34,485 nucleotides of DNA from assembly GCA_964499315.1 (NCBI GenBank), contig CAZCKQ010000001.1, forward strand, positions 1-34,485, read 5' to 3'. Of this stretch, positions 20,052 to 27,024 are shown piece after piece. Source of the DNA: an uncultured Eubacteriales bacterium. Its GTDB lineage: Bacteria; Bacillota; Clostridia; Acetivibrionales; CAYWGM01. The position numbers were made by a program, and so were the translations under genes. Below the pieces are notes generated by a model, which had not been told where the DNA came from, did no database searches, and saw only the letters and a program-made list of their open reading frames with translations. Every line of letters starts with the position of its first letter. The first letter of the stretch is position 1.

Positions 20052-20459
20052 GTGGCATCGGAATTCTTCCTTGAAATCATTACGCCCGAAAGGAAATTCT
20101 TCGCCGGACAGGTCGGGATGGTCGTCCTCAAGACGCCCAACGGTGAAATGGGAATCCTTAAAGACCATCTCCCTATGGTTGTCGCCGTGTCGATAGGCCC
20201 CCTCAGGATGCTTGTCGACGGCGCATGGCAGCACGCGGTCGTGGGTGAAGGGTTTATGGAGATCACACATGATAAAACGACAATCATGGCGGATACCGCC
20301 GAATGGCCGCATGAAATCGATGAAAACAGGGCGCGCGCCGCTGCAGAAAGGGCAAAGGAAAGGCTGACCAGACAACTGAGCCATATAGAATATATGCGTT
20401 CTCAGGCAGCCCTGTCAAAAGCCCTTGCCCGGCTTAAAGTCAAGAGGGATTATAAATAG
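20052..20459 (+). CDS. atpC: F1 ATP synthase subunit epsilon
   Basis: 135 aa at the last operon position, with a typical beta-sandwich plus helical hairpin pattern. GTG start. Confidence 0.9.
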   Translation: MASEFFLEIITPERKFFAGQVGMVVLKTPNGEMGILKDHLPMVVAVSIGPLRMLVDGAWQHAVVGEGFMEITHDKTTIMADTAEWPHEIDENRARAAAERAKERLTRQLSHIEYMRSQAALSKALARLKVKRDYK

Positions 20460-21585
20460 GCGCTGTTTCTGAAAAGATGTATTCCTGGTTTGCGAAAACC
20501 AGTCTATCGCCGTCTTTTACCCTGTAACCCTTACCCTCTTCTATCCTTACTCCGTTCAACATTGTTCCGTTCAGCGAATCCAGGTCCTTTATGAGATAAC
20601 CCGTTTCATCCCTGAATAGCTCCGCATGACGGCGTCCGACGACATTGCAGTTGATCAATCCGTCAGCTTGACTTTTTGAGCGGCCGATAACGAACACAGG
20701 CTTGTCGATCTGGATTCTGCCGCTGCATGCATACGAGCCTACAGGTAAAAGAGCAGGCCCGACGTACCGCGAAGGAAAGGTAATGCTCTCCGTGTTGTTA
20801 ACCGTCTTCCTCCTCTCCGAAGCCGCCGCCGTCTTTTCAGGACCTGACCCCGCACCCGTCCTTACAAGTCCTGCCTCAAACCTTTTCAATATACTCCTGA
20901 GACGGCCCTTAAGCTTATTTCCATTATCCGCATTCACCGGTTCATATCCCGGAATGGCACCGCAATTATCCGCTGACAGGCTTTTGCCTGTCTCCCGGCC
21001 CTCAAACTGCTCCGACCATAACTCAAGCTCATTCATAAAAGCTTTTATATTGAACGTAGACGCCTGTATACTTCGGATAAGCCGATGCAGCATCCCGCTT
21101 TCATACAGTATGCGTCCGTCCCCGACAAAGGCCGCAAGGCTCACAAGTACATTGCGGAAGCAATCCTGGAACGATTCAACAAAAGGATTATCCGGGATGC
21201 AAATTAATAAAATATCGAATACTTCCGGTTTAATGAAAATATACTTATCGCTGATCAAAAAACAGCTCTGATCAATAAGGTAGCTGGACGAACGGATAAC
21301 AACACCGGCAATCTGCCTCATTATGCCGATAAAAAGCTTTGCGGATACAGCCTCGCGCTTGACAAACTCATTTAGGGACAACATGGACGAGACATTATAA
21401 TACAGCCTTGCATGTCCATCCTCATGCTTGACACTTAGTTGCGCAATCCCCTGTATTTCATTATGAAGCAGCATATTATACCGGTAATTGTCGCATGGAC
21501 TGCTACCGGCGTTGAAAACAACATACCTTGAACCGCTGATCTCTTTCAATTCCAATAATTCATCCATCTGCATTTTCTGCAGCAT
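20440..21585 (-). CDS. FHA-domain protein with a large uncharacterised N-terminal domain, last gene of the Tad-like operon
   Basis: C-terminal FHA: VFVIGRS...VVGRRHAELF...YLIKDLDSLNGTMLNG...DGDRLVF. I place the start at ATG 21585 (GGAAAGGGGG SD 6 nt upstream). The track start 21717 reads through the intergenic repeat. Confidence 0.8.
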   Translation of the reverse strand: MLQKMQMDELLELKEISGSRYVVFNAGSSPCDNYRYNMLLHNEIQGIAQLSVKHEDGHARLYYNVSSMLSLNEFVKREAVSAKLFIGIMRQIAGVVIRSSSYLIDQSCFLISDKYIFIKPEVFDILLICIPDNPFVESFQDCFRNVLVSLAAFVGDGRILYESGMLHRLIRSIQASTFNIKAFMNELELWSEQFEGRETGKSLSADNCGAIPGYEPVNADNGNKLKGRLRSILKRFEAGLVRTGAGSGPEKTAAASERRKTVNNTESITFPSRYVGPALLPVGSYACSGRIQIDKPVFVIGRSKSQADGLINCNVVGRRHAELFRDETGYLIKDLDSLNGTMLNGVRIEEGKGYRVKDGDRLVFANQEYIFSETAPIYNPS

Positions 21586-21605
21586 ACGAACCCCCTTTCC
21601 TATTA

Positions 21606-21702
21606 CTGACGCCGCAATCCAACGCGCAAAAGACGGAGCGTATATTGATACGTGAGCACTTTTGCGACCGATGGCTGACGCCGCAATCCGACGCTTATCA
21701 CC
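21606..21702. repeat. intergenic element copy 1: A box (21606-21625), hairpin module B (21625-21674), A box (21675-21694), tail ttatcacc
   Basis: Bases 21625-21702 are 70/78 identical to 21769-21846. The A box ctgacgccgcaatcc(a/g)acgc occurs three times (21606, 21675, 21819). Confidence 0.9.
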
Positions 21703-21727
21703 CCTTACATCCTCCACCGCTTTCCCC

Positions 21728-21855
21728 GCTGCAAACGGTCAGAAGCGAGGAGTGCAAGGAAGCCAAGGCGCAAAAACCGGAGCATATAAAGATATGTGAG
21801 GATTTTTGCGACCGATGGCTGACGCCGCAATCCGACGCTTATCACCGTTTGCAGC
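21728..21855. repeat. perfect 12-bp inverted repeat (gctgcaaacggt 21728-21739 / accgtttgcagc 21844-21855) enclosing copy 2
   Basis: The two arms are exact reverse complements, read directly from the sequence. The distal arm ends 1 nt from the flp stop codon (21856-21858). A further 5-bp pairing, aagcg 21743-21747 with cgctt 21836-21840, follows a 3x3 internal loop. Confidence 0.9.
21769..21846. repeat. intergenic element copy 2 (hairpin module B, A box, tail)
   Basis: See copy 1. Outer helix 21769-21776/21803-21810; inner hairpin 21783-21787/21792-21796. Confidence 0.9.
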
Positions 21856-22074
21856 CTAGTCGATGCGGTAGGAATCCCTAATCCCTCCGCTCCTGATATC
21901 CTTGCTTATGGAATCGTCTCCGAAGACGGTTTGCATTATGCTGACCGCGAATTTGATGACTGCGTCCCTGAATATCAAGGCTATTCCTACTAAGACCGCT
22001 ATGATCAGCACTATTTCCACGGTTCCGAATCCTTCTTCATCTTTTGCCAGGTCCTTTAATTCATTTAGCAACAT
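21856..22074 (-). CDS. flp: Flp-type (type IVb, class III signal) pilin, Gram-positive Flp1-like
   Basis: 72 aa, MLLNELKDLAKDEEG|FGTVEIVLIIAVLVGIALIF. A Gly is followed by Glu at +5 and a hydrophobic helix. AGGAGG SD. Lies directly after tadC. Confidence 0.75.
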   Translation of the reverse strand: MLLNELKDLAKDEEGFGTVEIVLIIAVLVGIALIFRDAVIKFAVSIMQTVFGDDSISKDIRSGGIRDSYRID

Positions 22075-22777
22075 TGAGGCCTCCTAATGAGAGTAATGCA
22101 GGTGATATGACCATCAGCATTATCCCTATGAAGATGAGAATCATGGGTATGAGCATTTTTGTCGAGGCTTCCTCTCCGAGCTTCCTTACGGTCGTTTTAC
22201 GCTTTTCCCAACACTCTGCGGCATGCAGCTTCAGGAGAGGGACAAGCTCGAAACTGCCTTTTTTCCTATATTGAATGATTATCGAGACAAACCTTGTTAT
22301 TTCACTTATCCTGCACCGCTTGGCGAAATCTTCAAATGCTTTCATATCCGGTTTGCCGGAGTCCATCTCAGATAGAGTTACACGAAGCTCTCTGTACAGA
22401 AAGCGGTCGGCGGGACCTTCCGAGGCGACACGTCTCCATGCTCTTGTCAGGCTCATTCCCGTACTTGCAAGCAGACCGAGTTTTGTTATGAATGCGGGAA
22501 AATCAATCATGATTTGCTGCTTTCTGGCCTTTACCATCTTATTCAGCCTGTAATCGGGCAGATATGACATGATCGCCGGAAAACCCGCGGCAAATATTGC
22601 GCTTAACAAATCGGGGCCTGCCGCTGTCAGGACAATGACTGAAAAAACTCCTGAAACCGCACCATAGGCGATCCTCCGCGCCAGATGCTTCTTCAGATAT
22701 TCCAACGAGCATGCGTGTCCATATATCTCCGCATACTTCTGCCTTGTCTTCATGGCATATAACGTGTCGTAATTCAT
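22061..22777 (-). CDS. tadC: TadC-like inner-membrane platform protein (T2SS-F domain)
   Basis: 238 aa with TM segments flanking a cytoplasmic helical domain. ATGA overlap with tadB. Position is downstream of cpaF-tadB. Confidence 0.8.
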   Translation of the reverse strand: MNYDTLYAMKTRQKYAEIYGHACSLEYLKKHLARRIAYGAVSGVFSVIVLTAAGPDLLSAIFAAGFPAIMSYLPDYRLNKMVKARKQQIMIDFPAFITKLGLLASTGMSLTRAWRRVASEGPADRFLYRELRVTLSEMDSGKPDMKAFEDFAKRCRISEITRFVSIIIQYRKKGSFELVPLLKLHAAECWEKRKTTVRKLGEEASTKMLIPMILIFIGIMLMVISPALLSLGGLNVAK

Positions 22778-25972: not shown

Positions 25973-26113
25973 TATGAAGAAGATTGATTGACACAATACA
26001 TTTTATATGATATTTTATATATAAACAAAATCTTAATAATTCCTAATGATAAAAATAATATGAACTGATTTCTCTGATTAAGTTAACTTTTAGGAACGAC
26101 AGGAGTGTATTAA

Positions 26114-26329
26114 ATGCACGATCTGAAATTTCTAACAGAGATATGTCTGAAGGAGCTGGCGAGATTGTACAGAAAGGGCGAAATAAGCCTTGACGAGTTC
26201 GACTCGCATAGCAGTCTGAAAATAGCCTTTCTAAAGGAAGCATATAAATCACTGATAATTAAAAATTTCAGCGGGAACCTTAAGAAGATTATTGATGAAA
26301 GCGACAAAATCATCCATCATAGACGATAA
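26114..26329 (+). CDS. hypothetical 71-aa helical protein
   Basis: AGGAG SD 9 nt upstream of the ATG. No family recognised. Confidence 0.5.
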   Translation: MHDLKFLTEICLKELARLYRKGEISLDEFDSHSSLKIAFLKEAYKSLIIKNFSGNLKKIIDESDKIIHHRR

Positions 26330-26349
26330 CCATATGAACTTTAATACAA

Positions 26350-26547
26350 TTATTTCTTGCCTTTTTTAGCGACTTGTTTCTTAAGCTCAAAATGTCTGGC
26401 GATTAGTGTATCCAACTTTTTGCTGATCTCCAATATAATAGTGCTGTTGACAGCATTTTTTGAACTCTTGCCAATCTTTTTATTCAATTTTTGCTTCAAC
26501 AAATCGATTTCGGCTTCTAGTCCTTTTATCTCTTCGCGCTTATTCAT
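26350..26547 (-). CDS. Spo0E-like aspartyl-phosphate phosphatase family protein
   Basis: 65 aa, two helices. IDLLKQKLNKKIG...IILEISKKLDTLIARH resembles the Spo0E pattern with an SxxLD core. AAGGA SD. Confidence 0.55.
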   Translation of the reverse strand: MNKREEIKGLEAEIDLLKQKLNKKIGKSSKNAVNSTIILEISKKLDTLIARHFELKKQVAKKGKK

Positions 26548-26636
26548 AAAGTCCTTAAATTAAAGTAGCAAGTATTTTACAAAATCAAACAAATTATCAC
26601 AAATACTCCCTTCGACAGTAATAATATAACAAAATC

Positions 26637-26667
26637 CATCATTCATCAACGACATAAGTCAATGATG
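26637..26667 (-). terminator. weak candidate intrinsic terminator after the membrane-protein gene
   Basis: 7-bp stem catcatt/aatgatg with a 17-nt loop. On the minus strand it is followed by GATTTTGTTATATT. The stem is AU-rich, so this is weak. Confidence 0.25.
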
Positions 26668-26679
26668 ACTAAAATGGCT

Positions 26680-27024
26680 TCAATAGACAGCATCAACAGG
26701 GATCGCTATTCCGCTCATGAACTGGCTAATTATATCCATTACAATGCTATAGAAAATGATGCCGGCTACCATACCCAATACAGCTAACACTATCCACGAG
26801 ATCAGGACACCCCTTGCATAATTCCTGGTATTCAAGTTTTTTGCCCCGCCAAAAGCCAGTATTATCAATACTACCAGATTCACAACCGGAACGCATTGCA
26901 GGATTTGAAGCCAAAATACTTTGGCGGTGCTCAGCGGCTTAGTATCGTATACGTTATAGGAAGGCTGCGGAGGTTGAAAATCATACTTCGGTTGATAATT
27001 TTCCTGATTGACCTGCTGTTCCAT
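26680..27024 (-). CDS. hypothetical membrane protein (Q/P/Y-rich N-terminus plus 2 TM)
   Basis: Start moved to ATG 27024 (AAGGGGA SD). Two clear hydrophobic helices. Confidence 0.6.
   Translation of the reverse strand: MEQQVNQENYQPKYDFQPPQPSYNVYDTKPLSTAKVFWLQILQCVPVVNLVVLIILAFGGAKNLNTRNYARGVLISWIVLAVLGMVAGIIFYSIVMDIISQFMSGIAIPVDAVY

Follow-up and report, generated by a model that had tools for sequence, protein, structure and literature searches.

Tandem copies of a probable new family of small dispersed palindromic repeats between the flp pilin and FHA genes of an uncultured Eubacteriales bacterium

The stretch of DNA analysed here (34,485 nucleotides, hereafter the window) originates from an uncultured Eubacteriales bacterium and carries a Tad-like operon. 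The operon encodes a CpaE/TadZ-like ATPase, CpaF, two T2SSF proteins, an Flp pilin, and a protein with DUF6382 and FHA domains, the last two separated by a non-coding spacer (Table 1). The operon transcript and the genes around the spacer are on the minus strand. Elsewhere, the window consists of chromosomal DNA with housekeeping genes (ATP synthase, RF-1, Sua5, thymidylate kinase, and ABC exporters), and no transposase genes are encoded within its 34.5 kb. Upstream of the first tad gene, at positions 26001-27000, the G+C content is 0.35, compared to about 0.47-0.50 elsewhere. This low-G+C stretch may be the promoter or regulatory region of the operon, or it may contain small unannotated genes.

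The ATG codon of the FHA gene is preceded by a strong Shine-Dalgarno sequence, AGGAAAGGGGG (about 21591-21601). The public protein for this gene (P0001) has 381 amino acids, which matches the start at ATG 21585. The repeat copy nearest to the FHA gene, referred to below as copy 1, is open in the FHA-gene frame (21586-21717, minus strand) and forms with the gene a 425-aa ORF from GTG 21717; a gene caller that takes the longest ORF would give the FHA protein 44 extra residues of repeat sequence. The credible start of the FHA gene is ATG 21585 with its Shine-Dalgarno sequence. No close relatives of the DUF6382 + FHA protein beyond itself were found among 5.8 billion clustered proteins; the next match had 35% identity, was confined to the FHA domain, and came from a non-tad locus. 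At its 3' end, the FHA gene (minus strand, 20440-21585) overlaps convergently with the 3' end of atpC (plus strand, 20052-20459) by 20 nt (20440-20459), and no terminator consensus was found between the two genes.

A scan of the flp-FHA spacer revealed no promoter or terminator consensus, and there were no terminator-like sites in the region 20300-22300. Neither of the two hairpins of the spacer is followed by a T run on either strand, so that neither has the form of an intrinsic (Rho-independent) terminator. With no site resembling a promoter or terminator in the spacer, transcription probably continues from flp into the FHA gene.

Table 1. Genes of the Tad-like operon and elements of the flp-FHA spacer, with positions in the window.
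Feature	Position	Strand	Remarks
CpaE/TadZ-like ATPase	25923-24778	minus	
CpaF	24800-23514	minus	
Two T2SSF proteins	23589-22774, 22777-22061	minus	
flp pilin gene	21856-22074	minus	72 aa, Flp1_like; TAG stop 21856-21858
flp-FHA spacer	21855-21586	minus	270 nt
Copy 2, complete element	21728-21855	minus	128-nt imperfect palindrome; one long predicted hairpin
A arm of copy 2	21811-21846	minus	minus-strand sequence GGTGATAAGCGTCGGATTGCGGCGTCAGCCATCGGT; includes A box 21819-21838
Apical stem-loop of copy 2	21769-21810	minus	A-T/A-T variant; shared with L018
Right arm of copy 2	21728-21768	minus	degenerate inverted copy of A arm
Linker between copies	21703-21727	minus	purine-rich on minus strand; has GGAGG-ATG-TAA
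A arm of copy 1	21667-21702	minus	identical to A arm of copy 2
Apical stem-loop of copy 1	21625-21666	minus	G-C/G-C variant; shared with L008
Third A box	21606-21625	minus	20-nt fragment, direct orientation, 1 mismatch; replaces inverted right arm in copy 1
DUF6382 + FHA gene	20440-21585	minus	381 aa; start ATG 21585-21583

The spacer is built around a direct repeat of 98 nt (21616-21713 and 21760-21857) with 86% identity. It includes both 78-nt copies (21625-21702 and 21769-21846, identical at 70 of the 78 positions) on which the original prediction was based, and the 3' half that was described as the same in both copies is indeed so, the A arms of copy 1 and copy 2 being identical. The 20-nt A box occurs three times, at 21606, 21675, and 21819, with none expected from 100 shuffles. 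The first of these occurrences, already reported to lie before the Shine-Dalgarno sequence of the FHA gene, is present with one mismatch.

The earlier description did not include the 128-nt palindrome around copy 2. This complete element begins at 21855, directly after the TAG stop codon of flp, and is bounded by a terminal inverted repeat, GCTGCAAACGGT/ACCGTTTGCAGC, which is perfect over 12 nt and 90% identical over 20 nt. The predicted energy of the long hairpin is -62.4 kcal/mol for the sense strand and -65.7 kcal/mol for the antisense strand, with z-scores of -9.4 and -9.75, respectively. A covariance model comprising the A arm and the hairpin matched the right arm of copy 2 on the opposite strand (26 bits, E = 3e-6); therefore, the right arm is a degenerate inverted A arm. 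Copy 1 consists of an A arm and a stem-loop and has no inverted right arm. Because this arm is replaced only by the direct 20-nt A-box fragment, copy 1 is probably rearranged or truncated. No further copies were detected in the 34.5-kb window with nhmmer, blastn, or the covariance model with filters off. The GGAGG-ATG-TAA sequence of the linker (21705-21715, minus strand) is a start-stop mini-ORF fused to a Shine-Dalgarno-like motif, with a spacing too short for normal initiation.

Each of the 42-nt hairpins folded alone gives a predicted 8-bp outer helix and a 5-bp inner helix with a tetraloop, and the z-scores are -4.2 for 21625-21666 and -5.2 for 21769-21810. The fold initially drawn for the two copies (8-bp outer helix, internal loop, and 5-bp inner hairpin with a tetraloop) is thus adopted by each core unaided. 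In the predicted fold of the sense strand, the outer helix of copy 2 has 10 bp. The claim that all eight differences between the copies fit the fold also holds, as they comprise two double compensations and four loop changes, and no pair is broken. The outer-helix pair G21632/C21659 of copy 1 corresponds to A21776/T21803 in copy 2, and the inner-helix pair G21640/C21651 to A21784/T21795; the loop differences are at 21633, 21645, 21646, and 21657. When eight random substitutions per 42-nt hairpin were simulated, the combination of no broken pair with at least two double compensations appeared in about 7 of 10,000 trials, a figure that is post hoc.

Between copy 2 and a third full copy, found in contig L018 of a different assembly, there are seven differences among the 42 hairpin positions, none of them at a paired position. 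The chance that seven of seven differences fall in the 16 unpaired positions is C(16,7)/C(42,7) = 4e-4 (hand calculation). All 13 stem pairs are intact in each of the three full copies (copy 1, copy 2, and L018), with two double compensations. The stem variants recur as well: G-C/G-C is present at L008, the flp locus of a related MAG, and A-T/A-T in L018, and no intermediate form was seen. The long hairpin of L018 has a z-score of -5.1. Because the pairs are intact and the variants recur, the stem-loop is constrained family-wide and not only at the flp locus. Selection on structure, as first suggested from the two copies, is therefore supported, and the third full copy with its seven unpaired differences strengthens it. 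Some G·U pairs form only when the sense strand is read, and the overall energies favour neither strand. As the replacement of G-C by A-T works on either strand and both strands fold equally, the pairing does not establish action at the RNA level.

The spacer was previously regarded as ORF-free. Strictly, this is not the case, since it contains ORFs of 32, 46, and 78 aa, none with a coding signal. According to one alternative explanation, the element encodes small proteins, either from the two minus-strand ORFs (32 and 46 aa) or from the plus-strand ORF (78 aa). The element is traversed by three open frames, and one copy lies within a public gene call (P0006). However, the eight differences between the copies result in five amino-acid changes in the frame of the minus-strand ORFs, and therefore there is no synonymous bias. 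The P0006 protein (151 aa) continues into unrelated, probably artefactual sequence, and the gene call is probably spurious; moreover, an exhaustive search with the open plus-strand frame among 1.84 billion representative proteins yielded only P0006. The GTG starts lack a properly spaced Shine-Dalgarno sequence. We consider it extremely unlikely that the element codes for proteins.

Copies of the element outside the window were found by two routes. The first was an A-box scan of 185,579 species-representative genomes, which gave eight matches. Five of them were chance matches in high-GC genomes, and three belonged to contigs of a single MAG of uncultured Eubacteriales (CAYWGM01), designated L003, L004, and L008, each of which ends inside the element. 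L008 represents the orthologous tad locus, 85.5% identical to the window over 4.2 kb, and the element is again located right after flp. At the end of the 40-kb contig L003, the A arm follows a YebC-like C-terminus, and at the end of the 32-kb contig L004 it follows a metallophosphoesterase-like gene; in both cases, the stop codon of the upstream gene falls within the shared GTGAATGCGTGATAAGCG. The second route was a comparison of six-frame translations of the element with the protein collection. It yielded one gene call, P0006, which led to L018, where a full palindromic copy lies approximately 600 nt downstream of a sodium:solute symporter gene, past an apparent terminator. The search for dispersed copies proposed along with the original prediction was thus positive at the YebC-like, metallophosphoesterase-like, and symporter loci, an outcome that had been named there as a sign of a mobile repeat instead of a locus-specific regulator. 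At all loci, the A arm comes first after the upstream gene, i.e., the orientation is constant, and at three loci the element starts at the stop codon or within a few bases of it.

Other searches gave no additional copies. Scanning of JGI metagenomes with the A box resulted in eight matches, all of them due to chance and with unrelated flanks. Two patterns searched in viral contigs gave zero matches and one chance match in a coding region, respectively, and no blastn match was found in plasmids and phages. Homologues of the FHA protein, used as a route to orthologous spacers, comprised the protein itself and one distant FHA-domain protein from a non-tad locus. Homologues of the protein flanking the element in L004, used as a route to filled and empty sites, were all at most 56% identical. 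The flanks of copy 1, copy 2, L003, L004, and L018 showed no clear shared direct duplication, these copies being too few to fix the ends of the element.

Altogether, six copies from three assemblies were compared, three of which are complete through the hairpin. The A arm is 100% identical over 33-39 nt in five of the six copies (those of the window and the related MAG), and in L018 it carries two changes. For the right arm, the identity of copy 2 and L018 is only about 78%. Conservation of the A arm far exceeds that of the flanking genes, in which the two species are approximately 15% apart. The element family is dispersed, and its stems are under constraint.

These data bear on the functional options that had been left side by side in the original prediction. 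Since the A arm occurs after unrelated genes in other assemblies, the REP/MITE-like option is supported by the dispersed copies and a regulator specific for the Tad operon is not. A locus-specific cis-regulatory or processing RNA, acting for example as a structured leader of the FHA gene or as a 3' element of flp, would have evolved in place and been duplicated locally. The sense orientation inside the operon, the hairpin directly after the flp stop codon, the A box just ahead of the Shine-Dalgarno sequence of the FHA gene, the presence of the element after flp in the related species too, and the constrained stems are all in line with such an RNA. Nevertheless, on two contigs of the related MAG (40 kb and 32 kb) the same A arm of 33-41 nt follows unrelated genes, a third assembly has a full copy near the symporter gene, and the element belongs to no Rfam family, so we regard this explanation as very unlikely. 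With respect to Rfam, no matches at the gathering threshold were obtained for the window, L008, L017 (a Logan contig carrying the window's own flp), or L018, and the E-value mode applied to the spacer gave two chance-level matches (E = 2-3), far below gathering. The covariance-model search therefore agrees with the initial impression that no named RNA family is involved.

The invariance of the A arm could also be read as a sign of host function. In that case, the element would be a multi-locus motif recruited by the host and kept for its function, not as selfish DNA; its A arm would be bound by a protein or would pair with an sRNA, in many 3' UTRs or regions between cistrons. Two species that are 15% apart in the flanks share an invariant A arm, and the right arm drifts (78%, copy 2 vs. 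L018). The constant orientation to the upstream gene and the position adjacent to stop codons at three loci point in the same direction. However, a bias in orientation cannot be established from three or four loci, where chance alone gives a constant orientation with a probability of about 1/4 to 1/8. The identity of the A arms is accounted for equally well by recent transposition or gene conversion, and selfish repeats typically include truncated and tandem copies. Recruitment of the motif by the host is, in our opinion, unlikely. A bolder proposal is that the element is a domesticated RNA module that follows stop codons directly and in a fixed orientation. A dedicated RNA-binding protein, RNase, or sRNA would recognise its invariant 35-nt A arm, and the A arm and the compensated stem-loop together would govern what becomes of upstream messages, among them the pilin mRNA. 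We offer this as a speculation of low probability; if true, it would mean a regulon-wide system of 3'-end control in an uncultured lineage of Clostridia.

The behaviour of the element in assemblies was also considered. The Logan contig L017 matches the window at 100% identity as far as 21841 and stops at the edge of the element. Thus, four contigs (L003, L004, L008, and L017) stop at or inside it, which makes the repeat or its hairpin a systematic breakpoint of short-read assembly in this lineage. L018 contains an inverted repeat (1-134 / 225-358) of 134 nt with 99% identity, which reaches the contig start and has the element at its centre. The hairpin probably gave rise to the left flank of L018 as a fold-back artefact of assembly, and this flank was therefore left out of the evidence for terminal pairing. 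For the same reason, both true ends of the element are visible only in copy 2. The tandem arrangement in the window could itself be an artefact, produced by collapse or expansion of a repeat during assembly, and the independent contigs breaking at the element (L003, L004, L008, and L017), as well as the probable fold-back in L018, make such errors conceivable. On the other hand, the two copies differ at eight positions and have different flanks and right arms, which a collapse or duplication artefact would not yield, and L017 agrees completely with the window up to 21841. An artefactual origin of the tandem is therefore highly improbable.

The combination of a long imperfect hairpin, arms better conserved than the centre, compensated pairs, tandem as well as truncated copies, a place between genes close to their ends, and interrupted short-read assemblies is characteristic of small dispersed palindromic repeats. 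We conclude that the flp-FHA spacer most likely consists of tandem copies of palindromic repeats, small (about 115-130 nt) and dispersed, that form an undescribed family of the MITE/REPIN/ERIC kind in an uncultured lineage of Eubacteriales, with hairpin-dependent spread and a local effect on mRNA as presumed properties. According to this model, a complete element comprises a highly conserved left A arm, an apical stem-loop in which pairing is kept and the loops are free to vary, and a degenerate inverted A arm. Such elements could have spread by a hairpin-dependent copy mechanism that either passes through single-stranded DNA or relies on the terminal inverted repeats being recognised. Because the elements lie within the operon in sense orientation, the 128-nt hairpin would form in the polycistronic RNA after the flp stop codon. 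There it may stabilise the pilin message from its 3' side and/or be cut by an RNase specific for double strands, and such a cut would uncouple flp from the downstream FHA gene. By analogy with Correia elements, ERIC elements, and pilin stem-loops, the co-transcribed hairpin probably affects mRNA processing or stability, and it may have a local effect on the flp-FHA transcript.

These observations matter, as an apparent covarying structured RNA in a pilus operon turned out to be a copy of a dispersed repeat, and recognition of this fact guards against the description of a false Tad-specific riboregulator. In addition, they provide a candidate new repeat family from a poorly sampled lineage. To our knowledge, small REP/MITE-like repeats are little documented in this group of Eubacteriales.

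With regard to class assignment, the element is small (116-128 nt, i.e., <300 nt) and non-coding, as MITEs are. It has terminal inverted repeats, verified on one copy with trustworthy ends (copy 2), and is dispersed over at least three loci in the CAYWGM01 MAG, the flp locus of the window, and L018. Two inverted arms and a spacer that form a hairpin with compensatory changes are features that it shares with REPINs. The A arm is not itself palindromic and has no GTAG, as would be required for a REP sequence. CGTC is present in the A arm but is not adjacent to an 8-9-bp stem with a 4-5-nt loop, as defined for CGTC-REPs (PMC3733652). Since the arms are not REP palindromes and have no GTAG or proper CGTC tag, the element was placed as a MITE/REPIN-like new family and not as a REP. 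The survey of GTAG and CGTC repeats reports neither type from Firmicutes (PMC3733652); the host of the present element belongs to Eubacteriales. Two further candidates were rejected, namely an attC-like site, for which there was no integron context, and a DNA-uptake sequence, as only three A boxes are present in 34 kb.

A close structural parallel may be drawn with REPINs, in which REP doublets are mobilised by RAYT transposases and both compensatory changes in the hairpin and tandem clusters occur (PMC3116915). Like REPINs, the element is an extragenic sequence of roughly 100 nt with two inverted arms around a spacer, forming one long hairpin; arms more conserved than the middle, compensations, tandem clusters, and truncated singlets as remnants are further common features (PMC3116915). 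Unlike in REPINs, only one arm is strongly conserved here, and the arms are not short REP palindromes. Correia elements (CREE/NEMIS) of Neisseria are likewise MITE-like, 100-150 nt long, with terminal inverted repeats, and often co-transcribed with their neighbours, and their RNA hairpin is bound and either cleaved or protected by RNase III, which changes the expression of adjacent genes (PMC2649163). The TA target duplication, IHF site, and promoter-forming ends of Correia elements were not recognised in the flp-FHA element. The sequences are unrelated, and the hosts belong to different phyla.

ERIC/IRU elements of enterobacteria, as well as BOX and RUP elements of Streptococcus pneumoniae, are imperfect palindromes of approximately 107-127 nt in transcribed intergenic regions. 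The effects of ERIC elements on mRNA stability depend on their orientation. BOX elements are modular, with repeated sub-modules, and the order of A box, hairpin, and A box in the flp-FHA spacer recalls this modularity. These repeats come from different taxa, and no sequence similarity to them was expected or found.

Pilin genes offer a parallel of a different kind. In Aggregatibacter, flp-1 is followed by a 'termination cascade', and stem-loops or terminators of pilin genes would allow more pilin than downstream products to be made. Unlike flp-1, the flp gene described here is not the first gene of the operon, and its hairpin has no U tract and is a copy of a dispersed repeat that did not evolve at the locus. 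The likeness to Aggregatibacter consists in a strong hairpin directly 3' of the pilin gene, inside the operon, and if this hairpin shifts the ratio of flp to downstream expression, it would be another example of genes inside an operon being differentially expressed by means of a recruited mobile repeat.
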